Shown one piece after another: positions 1,137 to 21,588 of a DNA stretch of 24,208 nt. This stretch comes from a virus. Its lineage: Duplodnaviria; Heunggongvirae; Uroviricota; Caudoviricetes. The stretch covers positions 1-24,208 of the IMG/VR virus record IMGVR_UViG_2579778956_000001. One strand, given 5' to 3'. Below the pieces are notes generated by a model that saw only the letters and a list, made by a program, of their open reading frames with translations, searched no databases and was not told the origin of the DNA. The position numbers and the translations under genes were made by a program. How positions within the stretch are numbered: the stretch's first letter is position 1; each line of letters begins with the position of its first letter.

Positions 1137-2813
1137 CTAAGCAACATGTAGTTCATCGTTGGCGGAAGTGGCTGCTTTGCGTTCCTGCTCAATAGCTAGT
1201 GACTCTCTATATTCTTTCGCCTCTGCAAACATTGTCCAGTGGGCATTGATGTTCATATCTTCAATAACCGATTTAATTTCTTTAATATTTACGTTAAAAA
1301 ACTCTTTTCGTGAGTTAATTTTATTGACCTGCTTTTCGTTGAAGACTTTATGCAGATGATTTTCTAATGACGGTGCATCATCACTATAAATCATCGCATG
1401 AACATCGAACGAAAAAGGAACACTAGCATCCCCAAGTTCACGAACACGATCAAGTGGTTCAAGGCGGCGTGTCATTCCAATTTTATATACATCTTCGCCA
1501 AATGAGCCAATATTGCTAATTATATAAACATGGCCTGATCTAGTTTGTTGAGCCATAGAAATAGCTCGTTGGTTTTTAGCTTCAGCTTCTTCATATTTTA
1601 ACTGTAGTTCAGCTATTTTTTGCTCTAAAGCTAAGCGTTGTTCTTCATTTGCAAGCATAAGCTCTTTCGTTGCTTTATTTATAGCTTGCTGAATAGCTTT
1701 TTCTTCTTTTTCGGCTTCTTTTATCGCTTTTTCATACTCTCTACGAGCTCTTTCCTCTTCACGAAGCTGTTCTTTAATCCTTCTTTGCTCCTCTTTTTCT
1801 TCGAGCATAATTTCATTAACTGCAACTCCCCATTTTAGCTCGTTGAGTCGTGCCTGAAGATAGATGTCACTTATTTTTGCGGATCTAAAAGCAGAGCCAT
1901 TATAATTTACAAGTTGAAATGCATCTTTTATTTCTTGGGAAAGTTTTCCAAAATTGTTGTGTTTGACTTTTGATAAAATACTGTCAACTCTTCCATTGAA
2001 GGCATCCAAAACAAAGTTGATAGCAGTATTACGCCTGTTTTGCTCAACATAATCACACGAAGCTGCTTTATTAGTTTTTATTAATGATTTTGTTAACTCC
2101 CTGGCTTTTTGTAATTCCTTGCCTGCATCTGTAAACTCATAATTTTCTGCCAATTCATCAAGTACACTACGGTTAGGGATGATCCATTCATCGCCATAAC
2201 CTTCAATTTTATTTTTCATTGATTTGGCAACTGCTTCATATTTTTCTGCAAACTCTTTAGCTTCATATGCTGAACCAGCAATCTCTTTTGCTCTTTCTTC
2301 TGCATCGGAAATAATTTTTACTGCGTTGTCATTAGCATTTGAGATCAGCTCATTTGCTTTACTGTTGGCATTATCAAGACGTTCTTTGGCTTTCAGGCGT
2401 GCATCGCGAGCGTCTTTGGTGATTGCTATAGCTTCGCTATTAGCGTTGCTTATTGTTATCTGAGCTTGATAACTTGCTTCGTTTACTGTCTTAGCTGCCT
2501 TTATTTGGGCTTCTTCTATTTTTTGCCTAGCTATTGAGTCTGCATTTTTTATCTTATTCTCTGCCTCCATCACTGCGCTGTGCAATTCTTCGTATTGCCA
2601 TAATGGTGCTGCTCGCCCTTCAAGCTCTGATAGATCTCGTGCAGTCTGTGCTAACTTTTCTTGATTTTCACTCAGTTGGCTGGAAAGGGCTATGTTGTTA
2701 GCCGTCAGATTATCTATGGCGGCTTTGTGTTCTTTACTTTGCTTAAATAATATTATAGCTAGAACAGGGGCGAGAAATGCTAATAAGAATATAACGATGG
2801 AAAATGAATTCAT
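1137..2813 (-). CDS. Membrane-anchored coiled-coil protein with DUF4041 and C-terminal T5orf172 (GIY-YIG-like, MUG113) domains; candidate defence/abortive-infection moron
   Basis: 558-aa ORF. N-terminal hydrophobic helix (FSIVIFLLAFLAPVLAIILF), long E/K/A-rich coiled-coil region, and C-terminal GHVYIISN...YKIGMTRRLEPLDRVRELG...PFSFDV...LHKVF...REFF, which matches the T5orf172 pattern from memory. AT-rich relative to the phage backbone. Starts 20 nt after the cI stop with AAGGA as SD. Confidence 0.8.
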   Translation of the reverse strand: MNSFSIVIFLLAFLAPVLAIILFKQSKEHKAAIDNLTANNIALSSQLSENQEKLAQTARDLSELEGRAAPLWQYEELHSAVMEAENKIKNADSIARQKIEEAQIKAAKTVNEASYQAQITISNANSEAIAITKDARDARLKAKERLDNANSKANELISNANDNAVKIISDAEERAKEIAGSAYEAKEFAEKYEAVAKSMKNKIEGYGDEWIIPNRSVLDELAENYEFTDAGKELQKARELTKSLIKTNKAASCDYVEQNRRNTAINFVLDAFNGRVDSILSKVKHNNFGKLSQEIKDAFQLVNYNGSAFRSAKISDIYLQARLNELKWGVAVNEIMLEEKEEQRRIKEQLREEERARREYEKAIKEAEKEEKAIQQAINKATKELMLANEEQRLALEQKIAELQLKYEEAEAKNQRAISMAQQTRSGHVYIISNIGSFGEDVYKIGMTRRLEPLDRVRELGDASVPFSFDVHAMIYSDDAPSLENHLHKVFNEKQVNKINSRKEFFNVNIKEIKSVIEDMNINAHWTMFAEAKEYRESLAIEQERKAATSANDELHVA

Positions 2814-2833: not shown

Positions 2834-3430
2834 TCAATTTGAAACTATTGTACTTCTTATACAAGCAACCACTTCAATATCAGAAAATGCACATTCAAAG
2901 CTATTCTCTGTAGTTGTAATTTTAATCATACCTTTTGGAAGCTTTGTGATTTTTCGAATGGAATAGGTTCCGTCGATGTTGATTAACCAGTGTCCATCAA
3001 GTACTTCAGAAAATTTTTGATCACAAATGTATGTGACAAGCCCATCCTGAATAACAATTGGTGATGAAAGATTTGCAGGAAGAAATGATGAATCGAATAC
3101 ATATGAACCATCTTCAATCATTTTGCCTGCGGTAAGGCGAAACTTGGGAAGCTCTTCTGTGGCTACTGTCAGCGAGCTTTGCTTAAGTCCTTGCCCGGTG
3201 GTTAACCATTTCAGTGAGGTTCCTGTTTCAAGAGCACATTGGATTATCCAGTCTGCAGGAAACGTATCCCGCAAATACCTGTTCGCCAGAGTGCTTTTTG
3301 ATACTTCCAAGTGATCAGCTAAAGCCTGTCGTGTCGTAAAGCCATAAGCTTCGACTAATCGCTCAATCGCAGCCTTACCACCTTTATTGGGATTTATTTT
3401 GATCTCACTTGGGTACTTTGATGTTGACAT
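2834..3430 (-). CDS. cI: 186-type CI immunity repressor (N-terminal HTH, C-terminal oligomerisation domain)
   Basis: 198-aa ORF. N-terminal LVEAYGFTTRQALADHLEVSKSTLANRYLRD...ALETGTSLKWLTTGQG resembles the phage-186 CI HTH domain. Divergent from the apl/cII genes and adjacent to int. No LexA/S24-type Ala-Gly cleavage site or G-D-S-M motif seen. Confidence 0.75.
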   Translation of the reverse strand: MSTSKYPSEIKINPNKGGKAAIERLVEAYGFTTRQALADHLEVSKSTLANRYLRDTFPADWIIQCALETGTSLKWLTTGQGLKQSSLTVATEELPKFRLTAGKMIEDGSYVFDSSFLPANLSSPIVIQDGLVTYICDQKFSEVLDGHWLINIDGTYSIRKITKLPKGMIKITTTENSFECAFSDIEVVACIRSTIVSN

Positions 3431-3525
3431 ATCTCTTTTGCGATCCTAGTATCAGTTTTGTCCCCATTTGGGTACTTGTCACGATTACTACAGGCTCACC
3501 ACAAGCCAATAGGAGATGTTGCATC
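3431..3525. promoter_or_regulatory. Lysis-lysogeny switch region between divergently oriented cI and apl (expected face-to-face pL/pR promoters and CI/Apl operators)
   Basis: 95-bp intergenic region between the cI start (3430, minus) and the apl start (3526, plus). Contains TTGTCA/TTGTCC-like hexamers and a good SD (AGGAG 3511-3515) for apl. Exact -35/-10 elements and operators not resolved by eye. Confidence 0.4.
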
Positions 3526-3747
3526 ATGACCCCTAACATTTCAATAACTCTGAATACGCCACATGTCACAATTGAGCGTTATAGCGAACTTACTGGTCTT
3601 TCAATCGACACAATTAACGATATGCTGGCTGACGGTCGCATCCCTCGGCATCGCCTTCGGAAAGACAAGAAAAGAGAAAAGGTGATGATCAACCTTGCTG
3701 CTCTTACCGTTGATGCACTTACTGATTGCAATGTTGTATTCAACTAG
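3526..3747 (+). CDS. Apl/Cox-like small HTH DNA-binding protein (excisionase / lytic-switch regulator)
   Basis: 73-aa ORF starting at ATG 3526 behind SD AGGAG; the ORF-track upstream extension from 3409 overlaps cI and is unlikely. HTH-like [24 protein letters not shown]. First gene of the rightward early operon, in the Apl/Cox position. Confidence 0.6.
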
Positions 3748-3779
3748 TTCCATTTTGGGATACATCAGGGGTGTCGACC

Positions 3780-4289
3780 ATGTTTGATTACCAAGTTTCC
3801 AAACATCCACATTTTGATGAAGCCTGTCGTGCATTCGCATTGCGCCACAACCTGGTGCAACTGGCAGAACGTGCTGGCATGAATGTGCAGATTCTGCGGA
3901 ACAAGCTGAACCCATCTCAACCTCATTTATTAACCGCACCAGAAATCTGGCTGCTTACCGATCTGACTGAAGATTCAACGCTGGTAGATGGTTTTCTGGC
4001 ACAGATTCACTGCCTGCCATGTGTACCGATTAATGAGGTTGCAAAAGAGAAACTGCCGCATTACGTCATGAGCGCAACTGCAGAGATCGGACGTGTTGCA
4101 GCAGGTGCGGTATCTGGTGATGTAAAAACTAGTGCCGGTCGTCGTGATGCTATCAGCAGCATTAACTCTGTAACACGACTGATGGCGCTGGCTGCTGTTT
4201 CATTGCAGGCCCGTTTACAGGCTAATCCTGCGATGGCGAGTGCAGTTGATACCGTGACTGGCCTCGGTGCTTCATTCGGTTTGCTGTGA
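3780..4289 (+). CDS. cII: Phage regulatory protein CII (186/P2-family)
   Basis: Start chosen at ATG 3780 ([45 protein letters not shown]...) after the apl stop, with a GGGG SD upstream. Sequence recalled as 186 CII-like; position after apl. Confidence 0.7.
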
Positions 4290-5330: not shown

Positions 5331-6184
5331 GCACCATCCTGAAATGGGCGGGAAATAAAACTGCCATAATGTCCGAACTGAAAAAACATCTTCCTGCTGG
5401 CCCGCGACTGGTTGAACCTTTCGCGGGTTCCTGTGCTGTGATGATGGAGACGGATTATCCCAGCTATCTGGTTGCGGATATTAATCCTGATTTAATCAAC
5501 CTCTATAAAAAGGTTGCCGCTGATTGTGAATCGTTTATATCTCGCGCCAGAGTTTTATTTGAGATCGCAAACAGGGAGGTGGCTTATTACAACATAAGGC
5601 AGGAGTTTAATTACTCAACTGAAATTACTGATTTCATGAAAGCGGTATATTTCCTGTATCTCAATCGTCACGGTTACCGTGGTTTATGTCGCTATAACAA
5701 GAGCGGGCATTTCAACATTCCCTACGGTAATTATAAAAATCCGTATTTTCCTGAAAAAGAAATTCGTGCATTTGCAGTAAAAGCCCAGCGGGCAACGTTT
5801 ATCTGCGCCAGCTTTGATGAAACGCTGGCGATGTTGAAGGCGGGGGATGTGGTGTATTGCGATCCGCCGTATGACGGTACGTTTTCCGGCTATCACACTG
5901 ACGGCTTCACTGAAGATGACCAGTATCACCTGGCATGTGTTCTTGAACATCGGTCATCAGAAGGACATCCGGTCATTGTTTCTAACAGTGACACATCCCT
6001 GATCCGTTCGCTGTATCGCAATTTTACTCACCACTACATCAAGGCAAAACGCAGCATCGGTGTGGCAGCTGGCGAGGGTAAATCAGCAACAGAAATCATT
6101 GCTGTTTCCGGGCCGCGCTGCTGGGTGGGATTTGATTATTCGCGTGGCGTGGATAGTTCTGCCGTGTACGGAGTACGTGCATGA
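5327..6184 (+). CDS. dam: Dam-family N6-adenine DNA methyltransferase (orphan, phage-encoded)
   Basis: Start at ATG 5327 (SD GGAGG 5315-5319; ATGA overlap with the TraR stop). ILKWAGNK near the N-terminus, [23 protein letters not shown] and the catalytic DPPY motif closely parallel E. coli Dam. No restriction gene adjacent. Confidence 0.9.
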
Positions 6185-8595
6185 GTCATGCCGATATGAA
6201 CAACTGCTGCGGCTTTAACGAAGCTGCCGCATCGTTCTCATGGAACAGCCCGAAAAAGGCCATTAACCCTTATCTGGACCCGGCGGAAGTTGCGCCGGTT
6301 TCTACGCTTTCAAACCTGATCACTCTGTACGCTGCCGATAACGAGCAGGAACAGCTGCGCCGCGAGGCACTGAGTGATCAGGTCTGGGAGCGTTATTTCT
6401 TTAATGAATCCCGTGATCCTGTCCAGCGCGAAATGGAGCAGGATAAGCTCATTAGCCGGGCAAAGCTGGCGCATGAGCAGCAGCGTTTTAATCCAGACAT
6501 GGTCATTCTGGCTGACGTCAACGCCCAGCCTTCCCATATCAGCAAGCCGCTGATGCAACGTATTGAATATTTCAGCAGCCTGGGCAGGCCAAAGGCTTAT
6601 TCCCGCTATTTGCGTGAGACGATTAAGCCATGTCTGGAACGACTGGAGCATGTCCGCGACTGTCAGCTATCCACTTCTTTTCGCTTTATGGCAAGCCATG
6701 AAGGGCTGGATGGCCTGCTTATCCTGCCTGAAATGAGTCAGGATCAGGTGAAGCGCCTGTCTACCCTTGTCGCTGCGCATATGAGCATGTGCCTTGATGC
6801 AGCTTGTGGCGATTTGTATGCCACCGATGATGTTAAGCCAGAAGAAATCCGCAAGACATGGGAAAAGGTGGCAGCAGAAACCCTGCGTCTGGATGTCATC
6901 CCGCCTGCGTTTGAGCAACTCCGTAGGAAAAGAAACCGCCGTAAACCAGTGCCCTATGAACTCATTCCGGGTTCGCTGGCGCGTATGCTGTGCGCCGACT
7001 GGTGGTATCGGAAATTGTGGAAGATGCGTTGCGAATGGCGGGAAGAGCAGTTGCGTGCTGTCTGCCTGGTCAGCAAAAAAGCATCTCCCTATGTCAGCTA
7101 TGAAGCCGTGATGCATAAACGTGAGCAGCGCCGTAAGTCGCTGGAGTTTTTCCGTTCTCATGAACTGGTGAACGAAGACGGCGACACGCTGGATATGGAA
7201 GATGTGGTAAACGCCAGTAGTAGCAACCCGGCGCATCGCCGCAATGAGATGATGGCATGTGTTAAAGGTCTGGAGCTTATCGCGGAAATGCGCGGTGACT
7301 GCGCCGTTTTCTACACCATCACCTGTCCGTCACGTTTCCATTCCACGCTAAATAACGGCAGGCCCAACCCGACCTGGACAAATGCGACGGTAAGACAAAG
7401 CAGTGATTATCTGGTCGGCATGTTTGCTGCATTTCGTAAGGCGATGCACAAAGCCGGATTGCGCTGGTATGGCGTGCGGGTGGCTGAGCCGCATCATGAC
7501 GGTACAGTTCACTGGCACCTGTTGTGTTTTATGCGCAAAAAAGATCGCCGCGCCATTACTGCTTTGTTGCGTAAGTTTGCCATTCGTGAAGACCGCGAGG
7601 AACTGGGTAATAACACAGGACCACGCTTTAAGTCTGAGTTGATTAACCCGCGCAAAGGTACGCCAACAAGCTACATCGCGAAATACATCAGTAAGAACAT
7701 TGACGGGTGTGGTCTGGCTGGCGAGATCAGCAAGGAAACGGGTAAATCCCTGCGTGATAACGCTGAATACGTTAATGCCTGGGCGTCTCTGCATCGTGTT
7801 CAGCAATTCCGCTTCTTTGGCATTCCGGGGCGTCAGGCTTACCGTGAACTGCGATTGCTGGCTGGTCAGGCGGCAAGGCAACAGGGGGACAAAAAAGCAG
7901 GTGCGCCGGTACTGGATAACCCGCGCCTTGATGCCATTCTGGCTGCTGCTGATGCTGGTTGTTTTGCCACCTACATCATGAAGCAGGGTGGCGTACTGGT
8001 TCCCCGCAAATATCACCTCATCAGAACTGCTTATGAAATCAACGAAGAGCCGACCGCCTATGGCGATCACGGCATTCGTATTTATGGCATCTGGTCACCT
8101 ATTGCAGAGGGCAAGATCTGCACTCATGCCGTGAAGTGGAAAATGGTTCGTAAGGCCGTTGACGTTCAGGAGGCGGCAGCCGACCAGGGCGCTTGCGCCC
8201 CTTGGACTCGTGGCAATAACTGTCCCCTTGCTGAAAATTTGTACCAACAAGGGAAAGACAAATCAGCTGATGGAGATACCAGAACGGATATCACCCGCAT
8301 GGATGACAAGGAGTTGCACGATTACCTGCACAGTATGAGCAAAAAAGAGCGCCGGGAACTGGCAGCAAGGTTACGCCTGGTGAAACCGAAACGGCGTAAA
8401 GACTACAAACAACGAATTACAGACCATCAGCGACTGCAGCTCGTGTATGAACTGAAGTCCAGGGGATTTGATGGCAGCGAGAAAGAGGTCGATTTACTGC
8501 TTCGCGGCGGCAGTATTCCGTCAGGAGCAGGCCTGCGTATCTTCTATCGGAACCAGCGTTTGCAGGAAGATGATAAGTGGCGAAACCTGTATTAA
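6181..8595 (+). CDS. A: Replication initiation protein gpA (rolling-circle replication endonuclease, HUH family)
   Basis: 804-aa ORF. HUH-like VHWHLLCF and twin-tyrosine SYIAKYISK motifs. ATGA overlap with the dam stop. Size and position match P2 gene A. Confidence 0.9.
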
Positions 8596-8687
8596 TTACG
8601 CGGGTTAACAATTCGTGCTCTTAATAATACCAGGCATATCAGGGTGATGAGCGTAAAAAAACGTTTTACATCAGTAAGATTATTATA

Positions 8688-8707
8688 TACTGTAAATATA
8701 AACAGTG
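8688..8707. promoter_or_regulatory. LexA (SOS) box overlapping a putative promoter upstream of the small ORF at 8748
   Basis: taCTGTaaatataaACAGtg (CTGT 8690-8693, 8-nt AT-rich spacer, ACAG 8702-8705) matches the consensus CTGT-N8-ACAG. Embedded in an AT-rich region with a TTTACA -35-like hexamer upstream, and about 45 bp before an ORF with a strong SD (AGGAGG 8738-8743). Confidence 0.6.
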
Positions 8708-8747
8708 GTTATGTATACAGTATTGCTTTGGTGTCATAGGAGGAAAG

Positions 8748-8936
8748 ATGCAGGACTATTTTTTGGAGTCTTTGAAGCTCCAGCGCATTGATTTTTTTCT
8801 TAAGCTTGTAGCGGCTAGTGAGTGTAGTGATGAAGAGAAGGGGCTGGCTCTGCAGTGGGTTTCAGAGCTGACTGATGAGTTGATGGCGAAAATTCGTGCC
8901 CATGAATATAACCGTGTAATGGATCTTCCCGGTTAG
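8748..8936 (+). CDS. Small hypothetical protein under putative LexA control (possible antirepressor-like or SOS-induced factor)
   Basis: 62-aa ORF with strong SD AGGAGG and an upstream LexA box. Position corresponds to the 186 tum / P2 tin-old region downstream of gene A. No confident homology recognised. Confidence 0.5.
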   Translation: MQDYFLESLKLQRIDFFLKLVAASECSDEEKGLALQWVSELTDELMAKIRAHEYNRVMDLPG

Positions 8937-8949
8937 CAGCAGGGGCGTT

Positions 8950-8980
8950 GCTGGCGTGAGAACTAGATTCTCGCGTCAGC
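8950..8980 (+). other. Long imperfect palindrome / RNA hairpin downstream of the small ORF
   Basis: GCTGGCGTGAGAA (8950-8962), 5-nt loop, TTCTCGCGTCAGC (8968-8980): a 13-bp stem with two G-U wobbles in RNA. No U-tract follows, so not a canonical terminator. Confidence 0.35.
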
Positions 8981-9106
8981 AAGGTCAACTAAGGATTGAA
9001 ACAGAAAGCCCTTGAAAACAGTAGCAAGTTGCCTATTATCTACGCTGTATTTAATCGATGTCATTGGCTGTAATACCTTAAGTGATATTGAAAGGCGGTG
9101 TGGGGA

Positions 9107-10267
9107 ATGGATCTGGCTAAAGTTGAAGAACGCGTCCGAAGAGTCATAGGGACAATGGAGTCTGCCGAGCTTGATGAATATTTTTGGGGTAAGCGCTCGG
9201 GTTTGGGAGACTCATTACCTCCGTATTATCTCGTTTATTTTCTTTTGGTAGATTTACTGAAATTTAAAAATCGTGGGGTTGATGAGAAGATTTCTTTTTC
9301 TATCCCAGTCCGGATTGATGGGACTGTCGTAATTATAGAACATCGTAAACTTGGTTTAGATATATTTATCAAGAGTGATGATGATATAGAGCAAGCTAAA
9401 ACTGTTTTGAGACATATTTGCGCAGGGGTTAAAGCTGCTACGAAATTTTTTGACTCGCTTGCAGACAATGCAGCAAAGACTTCAAATCTAAATGTTAATA
9501 ACAATGCTAATTCTCTTTATGATAGGTTTTGCTATTTTTTAGAGCTATATAAACAGAAGCTTGATGAAGTTGCTGCTGGCCAAGAGTCTAAACTGGAAGT
9601 TGATAGTGAGTTTAAGTCTGATAATTTTTTCAGCCTGTTACAATCCACTTTTGAACAATCAAATAAGATAATTGAACTCCGAAGAGAGGCTATGTGGTTA
9701 GCAACGTCTGCAATTGAGTCATTTTTCAATTGGACCGAGCATGTTTTCATTCTTATTGCAATCTTGAAGGGTGAGATAAAAAATGGGAATGATGTGGCTG
9801 ATAAAGTTGGGAAAGAATGGGGGGAGAAATTCAAATTAGCCATTGATATTAACTCTTCCAGTCTAAAATCATTCTATGATCGTTTACTTATACTCAGAAA
9901 ACAGGTGCGTAATTTTGTAGCCCATGGCGCCTTCGGTAAGGATGGGCAAGCATTGGAATTTCACTCAAGTGTAGGGGCTGTGCCACTATTGCTGCCTCAT
10001 CGAGAAAATAAAGAACGTTTCAAGTTTGGAAATGGTGTGCATTTTTTGGCACCTGAAGCAATGCAATTAATTAACGATTTTCTTGAAAATTTGTGGCAGG
10101 GAGAACTGTCCCCAGCAAAAATTTATATTGAATCTGGATGTCCTTTAATACTATCTTACGTAACTAATGGAACCTATGCGGAGGCGATGAAATCAGAAAG
10201 GAATATGGACTTATTGGTTAATTACTTAACTCGTGAGATGGATAATGCCGCAAACATGGATTGGTAA
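9107..10267 (+). CDS. Hypothetical protein with HEPN-like R-N-x3-H motif (candidate RNase-type defence/abortive-infection effector)
   Basis: ORF with ATG at 9107 (alternative GTG at 9098; SD-like AAGG at 9092-9095, about 11 nt upstream). AT-rich codon usage. Contains LRKQVRNFVAHG, which fits the HEPN consensus R-[NSH]-x3-H. No other domain recognised. Lies in the gpA-Q hotspot. Confidence 0.65.
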   Translation: MDLAKVEERVRRVIGTMESAELDEYFWGKRSGLGDSLPPYYLVYFLLVDLLKFKNRGVDEKISFSIPVRIDGTVVIIEHRKLGLDIFIKSDDDIEQAKTVLRHICAGVKAATKFFDSLADNAAKTSNLNVNNNANSLYDRFCYFLELYKQKLDEVAAGQESKLEVDSEFKSDNFFSLLQSTFEQSNKIIELRREAMWLATSAIESFFNWTEHVFILIAILKGEIKNGNDVADKVGKEWGEKFKLAIDINSSSLKSFYDRLLILRKQVRNFVAHGAFGKDGQALEFHSSVGAVPLLLPHRENKERFKFGNGVHFLAPEAMQLINDFLENLWQGELSPAKIYIESGCPLILSYVTNGTYAEAMKSERNMDLLVNYLTREMDNAANMDW

Positions 10268-10594: not shown

Positions 10595-11845
10595 ATGGAT
10601 AAACAACGTGCTTCACAAGTTTTTGTGCCTGGCGGTATGCCGAAATTGACTTATGTTGAGCGCTCTGAAGGAGAGGTTCATGGAAAACTGGAGAGTGCTA
10701 AAGATAATTTATGTAAGTTAGTGACTTTAACTGGGCAAACAAAGTCTGGTAAGACTGTAATTACAAGAATGGTATTCCCAGTCATGGACGATGATGTTGT
10801 ATGGATTGACGGTGGGAGTATTACAACTGAAGATGATATTTGGGAGCAGGTATTAGAAAAACTAAATGGCTACCATAGTATTGAAGTTAATTCTGGAGAA
10901 AATAGTGCTATTGCAGTTAGTGGTAAGGTATCGGGGACCGCAAGTGCATTCGTTGTTAAAGGTACAGGTGAGGCTGGTTTAGTTCAGACGGATGGAAAGT
11001 CAAATGGTAATAAAAAATCGCGAACGATATCCGCAAAAAGTTCTGCACTAAAAGTTCTCTCTCAAACCAAGTCTAGTCTTATAATTGATGACTTTCATTA
11101 CCTTGATCGTGACCTACAAGGTAACTTTATTAGAGCGATAAAACCATTAGTTTTTGATGGAGTACCAGTTGTACTGATAGCCATTCCACATCGAAGATAT
11201 GATGCTGTAAAAGTTGAAAAAGAAATTACCGGACGGCTAGAAAATATTTCCATGCCTTCGTGGGAAATGGATGAACTAAAACAAATAGCAAAAGTGGGAT
11301 TTCCTCTGTTAAACATGGAAGTTAGTGATTCAGTAATTGATAAAATTGCCAATGAATCATTGGGAAGCCCTCATTTAATGCAAGAGTTTTGCAAGGCTAT
11401 ATGCTTAGCAAATAATGTTAAAGAAACTTTGCCGAGTAAGTTAGTTATTAATTCTTTAGATGATGATATTTTTAGAAAGGTTGCAGAATCCACTGGGAAA
11501 ATAGTATTTGATAAGTTAGCTAGTGGCCCTAATCAGCGAACTGACAGAATTCCTAGAAAACTGAAAAGTGGTGAGGAAGTAGATATATATAAAGTTGTAT
11601 TATATGCATTGTCACATATGAAACCAGGAATGCAAAGTATTCAGTATGAGGAGTTAAGATCAGCCATACGCGAACTGGTGCAAGATGCTCCTCCACAAGC
11701 TCATGAGGTTACTCGTGTTATAGAAAAAATGGCTAAAATAGCTGCTACGGAAGAAGCTTCAACTCCTGTAATAGATTGGGATAAGGAGGACCGAAAGTTG
11801 CATATTACTGATCCATTTTTTGCTTTTTATCTAAAATGGCGATAA
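10595..11845 (+). CDS. P-loop NTPase (Walker A/B ATPase), candidate defence-system ATPase
   Basis: 416-aa ORF with SD GGGAAG upstream. Walker A LTGQTKSGKT (about residue 45) and Walker B-like hhhhDD (SLIIDDFHYLD). AT-rich. No nuclease (Toprim/HNH) motif recognised, so not an obvious Old/Gabija-type protein. Confidence 0.8.
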   Translation: MDKQRASQVFVPGGMPKLTYVERSEGEVHGKLESAKDNLCKLVTLTGQTKSGKTVITRMVFPVMDDDVVWIDGGSITTEDDIWEQVLEKLNGYHSIEVNSGENSAIAVSGKVSGTASAFVVKGTGEAGLVQTDGKSNGNKKSRTISAKSSALKVLSQTKSSLIIDDFHYLDRDLQGNFIRAIKPLVFDGVPVVLIAIPHRRYDAVKVEKEITGRLENISMPSWEMDELKQIAKVGFPLLNMEVSDSVIDKIANESLGSPHLMQEFCKAICLANNVKETLPSKLVINSLDDDIFRKVAESTGKIVFDKLASGPNQRTDRIPRKLKSGEEVDIYKVVLYALSHMKPGMQSIQYEELRSAIRELVQDAPPQAHEVTRVIEKMAKIAATEEASTPVIDWDKEDRKLHITDPFFAFYLKWR

Positions 11846-14820: not shown

Positions 14821-15459
14821 ATGACAGTGAAAGCAAAGCGTTTTCGCATCGGGGTGGAAGGTGCCACCACCGACGGACGCGAAATCCAGCGTGAATGGCT
14901 GGAACAGATGGCAGCCAGCTACAACCCGGCGGTGTATACCGCGCTGATTAACCTTGAGCACATCAAGTCTTATCTGCCGGACAGCACCTTTAACCGCTAC
15001 GGCAAGGTGACGGCGCTGTTTGCTGAAGAAATCAAGGAAGGTCCGCTGGCAGGCAAGATGGCGCTGTATGCCGACGTTGAGCCAACGGAGTCCCTGGTGG
15101 AACTGGTGAAAAAAGGCCAGAAATTATTCACATCTATGGAAGTTAGCCCGAAGTTCGCTGATACGGGCAAAGCCTACCTGGTCGGCCTGGCTGCCACTGA
15201 TGACCCTGCCAGTCTGGGCACTGAAATGCTGACATTCAGCGCCAGTGCAGCCCATAACCCGCTGGCAAACCGCAAGCAGAATCCCGCCAATCTTTTTACC
15301 GCTGCAGAGGAAACGGTGATCGAACTGGAAGAAATCCAGGATGACAAACCGTCCCTGTTTGCCCGTGTCACGGCGCTGTTCACCAAAAAAGAGCAGTCCG
15401 ATGACGCCCGGTTCTCTGATGTGCATAAGGCCGTGGAACAACTGGCAGGGGATCGTTGA
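14821..15459 (+). CDS. O: Capsid scaffolding protein gpO, C-terminally truncated at a deletion junction (likely nonfunctional)
   Basis: 212-aa ORF with an N-terminus of gpO type (FRIGVEGATTDGREI...YLVGLAATDDPASLGTE). P2 gpO is about 284 aa as I recall. The ORF ends in a short non-homologous tail (QLAGDR*) exactly where tail-tube homology begins in another frame. Confidence 0.75.
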   Translation: MTVKAKRFRIGVEGATTDGREIQREWLEQMAASYNPAVYTALINLEHIKSYLPDSTFNRYGKVTALFAEEIKEGPLAGKMALYADVEPTESLVELVKKGQKLFTSMEVSPKFADTGKAYLVGLAATDDPASLGTEMLTFSASAAHNPLANRKQNPANLFTAAEETVIELEEIQDDKPSLFARVTALFTKKEQSDDARFSDVHKAVEQLAGDR

Positions 15460-15904
15460 GTCGCTGACGCTGCCGAAATTTACCCGCAAATATGAGAAGT
15501 ATCGCGGCGGCGGAATGCCGGGTGCGGTGGATGTGGATCTGGGGCTTGATGACAGTGCGCTGGACACAGAATTTTCCATTGGTGGTACTGAATTGCTGCT
15601 GTTTAAACAGATGGGTAAAGCCACGGTGGATGGCATCCAGCTGCGCTTTACCGGCTCTATTCAGCGTGACGATACCGGGGAAGTGCAGGCCGTGGAGCTT
15701 GTCGTGCGTGGACGTCACAAAGAAGTGGATTCCGGCGAGTGGAAGACGGGCGAAAGCAACACCACCAAAGTGACCAGTACCAACAGCTACGCGAAGCTGA
15801 CCATCAATGGTGAGGTGCTCTATGAAGTGGACCTTATCAACATGGTGGAAATTGTGGACGGTGTGGACCTGATGGAAGCGCACCGCAACGCCCTCGGCCT
15901 CTGA
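15446..15904 (+). pseudogene. FII: Tail tube protein FII, 5'-truncated fragment fused downstream of gpO
   Basis: Frame of ORF 15341..15904. Homology to the P2 major tail tube protein begins about at QGIVESLTLPKFTRKYEKYRGGGMPGAVDVDLGLDD and runs to the C-terminus (...EAHRNALGL). About 25 N-terminal residues and any start codon/SD are missing; the upstream part of the ORF overlaps gpO out of frame. Confidence 0.7.
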
Positions 15905-21353: not shown

Positions 21354-21433
21354 CGCTGCCGCCATTTTGTCGCCATCGTTAAAAAACAGTGCTTCTAACG
21401 TCATGATTTTAAACGGCATAAATTTCAGGCAAC

Positions 21434-21476
21434 AAAAAACCCATCAACCTTGAACCGAAATGGCGGGGTTGATGGG
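21434..21476 (-). terminator. Putative intrinsic terminator downstream of ybjL (minus-strand sense)
   Basis: Inverted repeat CCCATCAACC (21440-21449) / GGTTGATGGG (21467-21476), preceded on the plus strand by AAAAAA (21434-21439), a U-run on the minus strand. The loop is long (17 nt), so confidence is modest. Confidence 0.4.
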
Positions 21477-21588
21477 CTCCACAAAATGGGGACATCAAAG
21501 AAAAGCAGTGGCACTAATTAAGACTGATGCCCTGCGGAAAAGTTCTGCGGTTGTGCAAAAAAATTTCATTTTCAGGGCAACTTCAGTT

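Follow-up and report, generated by a model that had tools for sequence, protein, structure and literature searches.

The region analysed is an ordinary lysis-lysogeny switch of a P2/186-like (186/Fels-2-type) Escherichia coli prophage, and it very probably combines a CI repressor whose C-terminal domain is a catalytically dead S24 fold with a LexA-controlled, TumA-like antirepressor encoded 5 kb further downstream, after the replication gene. Switches of this type are already known from earlier descriptions for phages 186, PSP3 and Fels-2. The window, that is, the whole stretch of viral DNA that was analysed (24,208 nucleotides), derives from an E. coli prophage that sits at rybB/ybjL. Its gene order, int-(cargo)-cI / apl-cII-fil...A, is that of 186, with cI and int on one strand, cI being the upstream gene and facing the apl-cII early operon. 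A single PD-Lambda-1-like gene lies between cI and int, an insertion that sets the window apart from 186. The coordinates given for the immunity region in an earlier note on this DNA (2834-3780) were correct: cI occupies 2834-3430 (minus strand) and apl 3526-3747 (plus strand), and the cII start codon (ATG) is at 3780.

The immunity repressor CI (2834..3430, minus strand; 198 amino acids) consists of a helix-turn-helix (HTH) N-terminal domain at residues ~17-83, a linker, and a C-terminal domain at residues ~94-196. Residues 20-83 match the Pfam profile PF07022 (Phage_CI_repr) over its full length with an E value of 8.4e-32, which bears out the earlier proposal of a 186-CI-like HTH domain, and residues 94-190 match PF16452 (Phage_CI_C, E 2.5e-27). 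Residues 21-189 were also matched to the 186 CI crystal structure 2fjr in a search of PDB sequences (E 6e-27). With these two domains, which are those of 186 CI, and with its genomic setting, CI is a member of the 186-type repressors. The alignment to 186 CI that the earlier note had called for gave 33% identity over the full length (BLASTP E 1e-34); because identity is only 33%, operators and immunity different from those of 186 are expected. CI is 100% identical to the repressor of Klebsiella phage KP12, and its exact sequence is present on at least 1000 contigs. The Fels-2 CI is 41% identical to it overall (70% in the N-terminal and 28% in the C-terminal domain), and the PSP3 CI carries a duplicated HTH domain.

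It had also been claimed that CI lacks an S24 signature and an Ala-Gly cleavage site. The S24 profile search proposed as a check returned no match to PF00717 (Peptidase_S24) for whole CI at E<=1 or for the C-terminal domain alone at E<=10, while the positive control, E. coli LexA, matched with an E value of 1.1e-36. PF00717 was likewise found in none of 120 CI homologues among those listed. Hhalign of CI against LexA gave a probability of 4%, and neither this comparison nor a CI profile run against PDB sequences detected S24 relatives, which were found by fold search alone. In the AlphaFold model of CI (pLDDT 84), the C-terminal domain superposed on 2fkd with a Foldseek TM score of 0.93 and an rmsd of 1.3 Å. 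The C-terminal domains of LexA, lambda CI and UmuD' ranked directly behind 186 CI (E 1e-7 to 1e-2), with TM scores of ~0.6 and 9-15% identity. CI thus resembles lambda CI, LexA and UmuD in the beta-fold of its C-terminal domain and in the order of a DNA-binding N-terminal and an oligomerising C-terminal domain, but unlike them it has no Ser-Lys dyad and no in-register Ala-Gly, and sequence similarity to them is not detectable.

Structural analysis of 186 CI showed a deleted nucleophile half-loop and an Arg at the position of the base (PMC12984324). When this structural register was carried over through a gap-free alignment with 186 CI, Q128-D129-G130 formed a stub in place of the G-x-S nucleophile loop and R159, near-invariant in the family, fell at the position of the Lys base; the family alignment holds no conserved Lys anywhere in the C-terminal domain. 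In the same published register the equivalent of the lambda A111-G112 bond is R98-L99. The one Ala-Gly dipeptide of CI, A101-G102, lies three residues C-terminal of this position and out of register, and Ala101 varies in the family (A/N/D/S/E). Judged from the model, the C-terminal domain is a catalytically dead S24-fold domain, and RecA* should be unable to trigger CI self-cleavage because the Ser nucleophile loop is lost and Arg replaces the catalytic Lys. The earlier claims therefore stand as far as an in-register Ala-Gly, PF00717 and the Ser-Lys dyad are concerned, but an Ala-Gly dipeptide does exist and the domain still has the S24 fold.

A putative early lytic promoter resembling pR (TTGACA-17-TAGTAT, 3424..3452, plus strand) scored 10/12 in a consensus scan and occupies the position equivalent to 186 pR; its -35 element overlaps the cI start codon. 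Candidate operators were sought among repeats. One copy of a direct repeat (D2), TCACTTGGGTACTT, lies just upstream of the pR -35 (3405..3418, plus strand), and a second, CCATTTGGGTACTT, just downstream of the -10 (3464..3477, plus strand), 59 bp from the first. Exact AYTTGGGWA sites number three in the 24-kb window, all within 3142-3474, against 0.92 expected window-wide; two of them flank pR as predicted CI or Apl sites, and outside the immunity region the motif with 3 mismatches was no more frequent than chance. The third core copy, ACTTGGGAA, is located inside cI (3142..3150, plus strand), ~295 bp left of pR. By analogy with 186, where the FL flanking site lies ~306 bp left of pR, it may possibly be a counterpart of FL, a weak suggestion. 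In 186 the pR operators and FL/FR are bridged by a CI 14-mer wheel. A candidate lysogenic promoter pL (TTGAAA-17-CAACAT, 3516..3544, minus strand; 8/12) faces pR across ~50 bp, and its offset from the apl start is the same as that of 186 pL. Both pL and the SOS promoter described below were missed at the standard threshold and were found with a lenient promoter scan.

As in 186, pR and pL would be placed face to face, with apl first and then cII. The first gene of the pR operon, apl (3526..3747, plus strand), encodes a 73-residue Cox/Apl-like excisionase and repressor that matches phrog_575, labelled 'Cox-like excisionase and repressor' (E 9.6e-32), with weak HTH_17/excisionase matches besides. 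It is followed by cII (3780..4289, plus strand), the 186-type activator of lysogeny establishment, which matches PF06892 (E 2.6e-42) and is 69% identical to 186 CII.

The early operon ends with the replication endonuclease gene gpA (6181..8595, plus strand, from the ORF list), whose product is 99% identical to the KP12 'replication protein', and the SOS module follows directly. The LexA box previously noted after gpA, TACTGTAAATATAAACAGTG (8688..8707, plus strand), agrees with the consensus at 17 of 20 positions. It is the sole match in the window at <=3 mismatches, a level reached in none of 100 shuffles, and contains the window's sole perfect CTGT-N8-ACAG. This box begins ~90 bp past the gpA stop (8595) and ends 41 bp ahead of a 62-codon ORF. 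Among 43 related loci, drawn from many Enterobacterales genera, 41 have such a box ahead of the corresponding gene, consistently ~150 bp after gpA. In the window the box overlaps the -10 of a p95-like promoter (8665..8693, plus strand; -35 TTTACA at 8665-8670), for which the -10 may be TACTGT (8688-8693, 17-nt spacer) or TATACT (8686-8691, 15-nt spacer). The former corresponds to 186 p95, whose annotated -10 is formed by the opening 6 nt of its LexA box; as in 186, a promoter presumably repressed by LexA follows gene A and has the box across its -10.

A second LexA box, CAGTGGTTATGTATACAGTA (8703..8722, plus strand), has a core that shares one base with the core of the first and is present in 24 of the 43 loci; 186 differs in having a single box. 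Over 37-39 nt the double box is 90-92% identical to the promoters of colicin Y and cloacin, and by this nearly identical sequence 8688-8722 is a colicin-type double LexA operator. Colicin double boxes are bound by two LexA dimers (PMC2994835). If LexA binds the predicted boxes in this way, repression would be very tight, with expression at strong or prolonged SOS only. Unlike the colicin and cloacin operators, that of the window controls a putative antirepressor rather than a toxin, and the likeness may stem either from shared ancestry or from convergence towards the LexA consensus.

The ORF behind these boxes (8748..8936, plus strand), hereafter tumA-like, starts 153 bp past the gpA stop, the same place as in related loci. 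It has a strong ribosome-binding site and encodes a putative CI antirepressor of 62 amino acids with a predicted helical hairpin. An antirepressor under LexA control had been anticipated after the replication gene, and this ORF fits the expectation, with antirepression of CI attributed to it by homology. The protein is 95% identical to both Fels-2 STM2728 and KP12_333. Its family, phrog_698, was matched by residues 7-44 of 186 Tum (E 2.4e-5), phrog_8554 was matched by both the 62-residue protein and 186 Tum (E 3.7e-8 and 1.4e-11), and phrog_1993 gave a further cross-match between the two. In direct Smith-Waterman comparison they scored 57 against 20.9 +/- 4.2 in shuffles (z 8.6; 0 of 2000 shuffles reached 57), aligning in the same register over residues 6-41. 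At the profile level, these results argue for homology of the protein with the N-terminal half of 186 Tum, the antirepressor part, and place it with the PSP3 TumA type. The antirepressor N-terminal 40 residues align in register, but Tum is a 146-residue fusion with a DinI domain, whereas the window encodes a stand-alone protein.

Other comparisons of this short protein gave less. BLASTP did not align it to 186 Tum or PSP3 TumA, a negative result that is uninformative at such short length because the accepted homologues 186 Tum and PSP3 TumA also fail to align with each other; its relationship to PSP3 TumA is very remote. A low-diversity alignment of the protein scored weakly in hhalign against 186 Tum (probability 16%), Foldseek found nothing significant for its model among viral structures, the helical hairpin being non-specific, and no family in Pfam, NCBIfam or PADLOC covers the ORF. 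In public records it is labelled 'hypothetical' or 'levan regulatory protein'. The BLASTP and hhalign outcomes, the lack of a covering family and these labels were counted against the overall reading.

The Tum mechanism of antirepression has been described for 186 (PMC7708051). According to PMC3121763, Fels-2 and PSP3 have tum as two genes, the upstream one for the antirepressor and the downstream one a dinI homologue. The window resembles both Fels-2 (STM2728 plus DinI) and PSP3 (tumA/tumB, annotated as separate genes, with the note 'UV induction of prophage' for tumA) in having a small antirepressor gene directly after gpA, and its first LexA box has exactly the Fels-2 sequence. The lethality of lexA null mutations in LT2 is ascribed in PMC8072944 to the Fels-2 prophage. 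Unlike Fels-2 and PSP3, the window has no downstream DinI/tumB gene, and no DinI-like match was found anywhere in it. This missing partner was counted against the overall reading. About half of the related loci also lack DinI, however, so its absence was rejected as a special trait of this prophage, and DinI/tumB is probably dispensable for antirepression. A strong RNA hairpin follows the tumA-like gene (8944..8986, plus strand; dG -29.9 kcal/mol, z -5.7). It has no U-tract, and a terminator scan found no canonical terminator after the gene; the hairpin is possibly a partial terminator or a module boundary.

In the proposed mechanism, a lysogen would produce CI from the leftward promoter facing pR, and CI, with its 186-type HTH and a C-terminal oligomerisation domain derived from the LexA/S24 fold, would act around pR to shut the early operon (apl-cII-fil...dam-A). 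As RecA* would be unable to make CI cleave itself, DNA damage would be sensed indirectly. LexA would occupy the colicin-type double SOS box over the promoter -10 just after gpA; once LexA is cleaved, the TumA-like helical-hairpin protein would be made, bind CI reversibly and block operator binding, and pR would fire. Inactivation by a protein inhibitor would set CI apart from lambda CI, LexA and UmuD, with their RecA*-stimulated cleavage. A similar arrangement, a non-cleavable repressor with a small LexA-controlled antirepressor encoded outside the immunity region, is seen in Gifsy-1/-2/-3 and N15 (GfoA, GftA, AntC), where antirepressor genes often adjoin a dinI homologue. The repressor and antirepressor families of those phages are unrelated to the ones here, however, and dinI comes first in the Gifsy phages.

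Across relatives the TumA-like protein is 67-98% identical, against 42-100% for the CI N-terminal and 26-100% for the CI C-terminal domain. TumA-like proteins of at least 75% identity accompany at least 11 classes of CI C-terminal domain and at least 7 classes of N-terminal domain. TumA divergence tracks the N-terminal domain weakly (Mantel r 0.29, p ~0.01) and the C-terminal domain not at all (Mantel r 0.01). Strict co-evolution of TumA with CI was rejected on a counter-example from Pantoea stewartii, in which a TumA-like protein is paired with a 186-like CI. Such low co-variation is atypical for a tightly co-evolving inhibitor-target pair and counts against the overall reading. Instead of being matched to one cognate CI, the TumA-like protein may act as a generalist whose target is a surface conserved among 186-family CI proteins, an idea we put forward tentatively and regard as somewhat doubtful. 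In the CI N-terminal domain, R24, Y29, F31, H40, R51, Y52, R54 and E68 are invariant.

The low co-variation also lends something to the alternative that the ORF encodes no antirepressor and that the LexA promoter serves downstream genes, the prophage being non-inducible like P2 or induced otherwise. The genes meant are the DinI homologue in relatives and, in the window, cargo genes of 389 and 416 amino acids. No U-tract terminator separates the ORF from these same-strand cargo genes, the 186 p95 transcript extends over orf97 too, and direct functional annotation of the ORF is absent. We nevertheless consider this unlikely, since the ORF with its LexA box is the constant element (41/43 loci) while DinI is missing from about half and the cargo differs, since the profile-level homology falls on the part of Tum that is missing from shorter, non-antirepressor Tum products, and since PSP3 tumA is annotated with UV induction of the prophage. 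Still less credible is a CI that cleaves itself in response to RecA like lambda CI or LexA, through non-canonical residues such as S157 with a basic residue and a cut at A101-G102. The S24-like fold, the single Ala-Gly and the near-invariance of S157 would suit it, but PF00717 signal is absent, the nucleophile loop is truncated to Q128-D129-G130 and R159 stands at the base position as in the 186 CI structure, Ala101 is unconserved and three residues past the scissile equivalent, and Tum, not cleavage, is what inactivates the homologous 186 CI; the chance of such a mechanism appears minimal.

The prophage has suffered a deletion of 10.96 kb from gpO to FII, with the head, lysis and tail genes gone. 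The earlier note mentioned neither this loss of ~11 kb nor the colicin-type double LexA box and the absence of tumB. Because these ~11 kb are deleted, induction cannot yield phage; derepression could at most turn on the early genes and allow excision and replication. A deleted prophage may be under relaxed selection for inducibility, which was counted against the overall reading. The deletion would also agree with a switch that is an inert relic, its cI, tumA and LexA boxes being functionless and in decay since the morphogenesis and lysis genes were lost. This is very improbable: all early genes including cI, apl, cII, gpA and tumA are intact ORFs, they are 95-100% identical to the genes of the isolated phages KP12 and Fels-2 and of an E. 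coli prophage that is intact and occupies this site, the LexA boxes exactly match those of intact relatives, and CI must stay active, as otherwise Fil and the replication functions would be expressed. A 186/Fels-2-type switch with a dead-fold CI and a TumA-like antirepressor under LexA control remains by far the best account.

The value of this result lies mainly in annotation, as it explains the LexA box after gpA and helps to interpret the rest of the window. A putative function is also given to a small ORF that is very common but left 'hypothetical', or mislabelled 'levan regulatory protein', in Pfam, NCBIfam, PHROGs and RefSeq. SOS-inducing antibiotics are predicted to derepress the element, with early expression and possibly excision and replication, and no phage release. 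If the TumA-like protein is a generalist, one SOS-induced TumA, even from a crippled prophage, would derepress all co-resident 186/Fels-2-type prophages in trans, and their derepression would have a shared high threshold, given by the colicin-type double LexA lock. The double LexA operator and the weak TumA/CI co-variation thus offer inexpensive leads on cross-talk among Enterobacterales prophages.

The repressor CI (198 aa; cI, 2834-3430, minus strand) contains both domains of 186 CI (PF07022, E 8.4e-32; PF16452, E 2.5e-27), which bears out the 186-CI-like HTH N-domain seen in the earlier note, and it matches 2fjr, the sequence of the 186 CI crystal structure (E 6e-27). Alignment to 186 CI, as that note had proposed, gave 33% identity over 172 residues. 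The absence of an S24 signature was likewise upheld: no Peptidase_S24 profile match was found in CI, even with the isolated C-domain at E≤10, in a search in which the LexA control matched PF00717 at 1.1e-36, and none of the 120 listed CI homologues carried PF00717. In an AlphaFold model (pLDDT 84), the Foldseek matches following 186 CI were the C-domains of LexA, lambda CI and UmuD' (E 7.5e-7 to about 1e-2, TM about 0.6, identity 9-15%), so the CI C-domain is predicted to be a diverged S24 fold. 186 CI belongs, according to a 2026 structural survey, to a LexA-endopeptidase-like family (PMC12984324). When the catalytic-site positions of 186 CI were carried over through a gap-free stretch of the pairwise alignment, the nucleophile stub corresponded to Q128-D129-G130 and the base position to R159. 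The family shows almost no variation at R159, and no conserved Lys was found across the C-domain. The claim that CI lacks an Ala-Gly cleavage site held only in part, as one Ala-Gly, A101-G102, does exist. This pair was rejected as a cleavage site because lambda A111-G112 corresponds to R98-L99 and because homologues differ at Ala101 (A/N/D/S/E); A101-G102 is a hairpin turn.

Across the CI family (homologue alignments A2/A3; related loci L005-L041), conservation is much stronger in the HTH N-domain (residues 17-83) than in the C-domain. N-domains are often >90% identical where C-domains are 40-55% identical, a pattern suggesting that the oligomerisation domain drives diversification. Some relatives of about 290-330 aa carry a second N-terminal HTH copy, as does PSP3 CI.

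The switch region (3431-3525) separates cI from apl (3526-3747, plus strand, 73 aa; phrog_575 'Cox-like excisionase and repressor', E 9.6e-32) and is followed by cII (start 3780; PF06892, E 2.6e-42), fil, DUF5347, DUF2732, a DksA-type zinc finger, dam and, last of the early genes, gpA (6181-8595), the same order as in the 186 early operon. The early lytic promoter pR (3424-3452, TTGACA-17-TAGTAT) has a -35 element overlapping the cI start codon. A weak leftward candidate for the lysogenic promoter pL (3544-3516, TTGAAA-17-CAACAT) matches the position of pL relative to apl in 186, so that the two promoters would lie face to face, about 50 bp apart. pR is flanked by the two copies of a 14-nt direct repeat, TCACTTGGGTACTT (3405-3418) and CCATTTGGGTACTT (3464-3477). 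The repeat core, AYTTGGGWA, occurs three times in the 24 kb, all inside 3142-3474 (0.92 expected in the whole window), and the third copy, about 295 bp left of pR, recalls the 186 flanking operator site FL; these repeats are candidate operators only. Between int and cI lies a gene for a 558-aa DUF4041 and T5orf172/MUG113 protein (1137-2813, minus strand) with a PADLOC match to the anti-phage system PD-Lambda-1 (E 7e-120); the gene's orientation with the cI-int operon makes expression from pL in the lysogen probable.

The LexA box placed after gpA by the earlier note proved unique: exactly one CTGT-N8-ACAG occurs in the window (8690-8705), and the 20-nt LexA consensus with ≤3 mismatches has exactly one match (8688-8707, box 1) and none in any of 100 shuffles. 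A -35 element, TTTACA (8665-8670), precedes TACTGT with a 17-nt spacer, so box 1 covers the -10, as annotated for the SOS promoter p95 of 186. The core of a second box (box 2, 8703-8722, CAGTGGTTATGTATACAGTA) overlaps box 1 by one base. Such overlapping boxes were found in 24 of 43 loci; only one box is present in 186, PSP3 and the Pantoea/Erwinia relatives. Over 37-39 nt the double box (8688-8722) is 90-92% identical to the operators that precede the colicin Y and cloacin genes of small Col plasmids (L043 2501-2537, L044 61-99), and 332 plasmid records matched it. Two LexA dimers bind a colicin double box, which holds the lethal genes fully off until strong SOS (PMC2994835); by this likeness, tight locking and late SOS expression would be expected of the gene downstream.

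That gene, a 62-aa ORF (8748-8936, plus strand), starts 41 bases downstream of box 1 behind a GGAGGA ribosome-binding site, and its kinship to 186 Tum supports it as the predicted antirepressor gene beyond the replication gene. BLASTP returned no alignment between the two proteins. 186 Tum residues 7-44 matched phrog_698, the ORF's own family (E 2.4e-5), and both proteins, 186 Tum and the ORF, matched phrog_8554 (E 3.7e-8 and 1.4e-11) and phrog_1993 (E 2.5e-3 and 1e-22). Their Smith-Waterman score of 57, obtained in the same register (6-41), was reached by 0 of 2000 shuffles (20.9 ± 4.2); it is as strong as that of the pair PSP3 TumA and 186 Tum (55), whose relatedness the PSP3 record accepts. 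The structure model (pLDDT 87) is a two-helix hairpin (H2-23, H28-58) with an invariant Cys26 in the turn. The protein is annotated publicly as 'hypothetical protein' or, apparently spuriously, 'levan regulatory protein'; PHROG 698 is labelled 'unknown function', and neither Pfam nor NCBIfam has a model for it.

In 37 loci from different Enterobacterales species retrieved with the 62-aa protein, the tumA-like gene invariably follows gpA by about 150 bp, with a 186-type cI 5-6 kb upstream wherever the flank is long enough. A LexA box (≤1 core mismatch) precedes it in 41 of the 43 loci examined. 186 Tum is described in the literature as an antirepressor-DinI fusion; in Fels-2 and KP12, homologues 95% identical to the ORF (STM2728 and KP12_333) directly precede a 77-aa DinI gene. 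DinI is missing from about half of the loci, so its absence here is ordinary. A hairpin directly 3' of the tumA stop (8944-8986, plus strand; -29.9 kcal/mol, z -5.7, no U-tract) may act as a partial terminator, stabilise the RNA or be a recombination scar at a cargo boundary. Between tumA and the portal gene, two cargo genes replace DinI/orf97-type genes: one for 389 aa without family (9098-10267, plus strand; faint Csx1-HEPN match, E 0.04), shared with E. coli L725, where subsequent genes differ, and one for a 416-aa AAA ATPase (10595-11845, plus strand; defence candidate PDC-S59, E 1.2e-31). Since no canonical terminator was found between tumA and these same-strand genes, read-through may make them partly SOS-inducible.

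Strict one-to-one co-evolution of TumA and CI was disfavoured. In 33 loci with both genes, identity to the window was 67-98% for TumA, 42-100% for the CI N-domain and 26-100% for the C-domain. Mantel tests, which ignored kinship, gave r 0.29 (p about 0.012) for TumA against the N-domain, a hint only, and r 0.01 (p 0.45) against the C-domain. TumAs ≥75% mutually identical occur beside CIs of no fewer than 11 C-domain classes and no fewer than 7 N-domain classes, and a Pantoea stewartii locus combines a CI 67%/59% (N-/C-domain) identical to 186 CI with a TumA only 18% identical to 186 Tum; both argue against such pairing. TumA could be a generalist antirepressor that cross-induces heteroimmune relatives, as shown for the unrelated Gifsy antirepressors (PMC3121763).

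The prophage is P2/186-like, 97% identical in nucleotide sequence to Klebsiella phage KP12, with host flank rybB-ybjL-ybjM-grxA. The RybB sRNA gene (21431-21509, minus strand; Rfam RF00110, 105 bits) overlaps the attR core CAGGCAACAAAAAACCCAT at 21426, so the phage integrates into the rybB 3' end beside ybjL, restoring rybB. Relative to phage 4LV2017, position 16474 is joined to 27431 at 15435-15437, a clean 10,956-bp deletion (4LV2017 16475-27430) spanning the gpO 3' end, N, M, L, X, holin, endolysin, LysB, R, S, V, W, J, I, H, G, FI and the first 46 nt of FII. The prophage is thus defective, having lost its genes for the capsid, small terminase, lysis, baseplate, fibre and sheath, and derepression cannot yield particles or lysis. 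The junction fuses the truncated gpO scaffold gene to the truncated FII tail-tube gene (ORFs 14821-15459 and 15341-15904). In complete E. coli genomes, related prophages are about 35-38 kb long; the one inspected, an intact 37.5-kb relative at the same chromosomal site in L725, has the deleted genes.

The earlier note was correct in both observation and interpretation. The system is already established for 186, PSP3 and Fels-2; the exact CI and 62-aa sequences occur on at least 1000 and on 146 public contigs, respectively. What the analysis adds is modest: a CI C-domain that is a dead S24 fold, an antirepressor left unnamed by public annotation, its stand-alone form without DinI, the absence of co-variation between TumA and CI, and a colicin-type double LexA lock that the earlier note did not contain.
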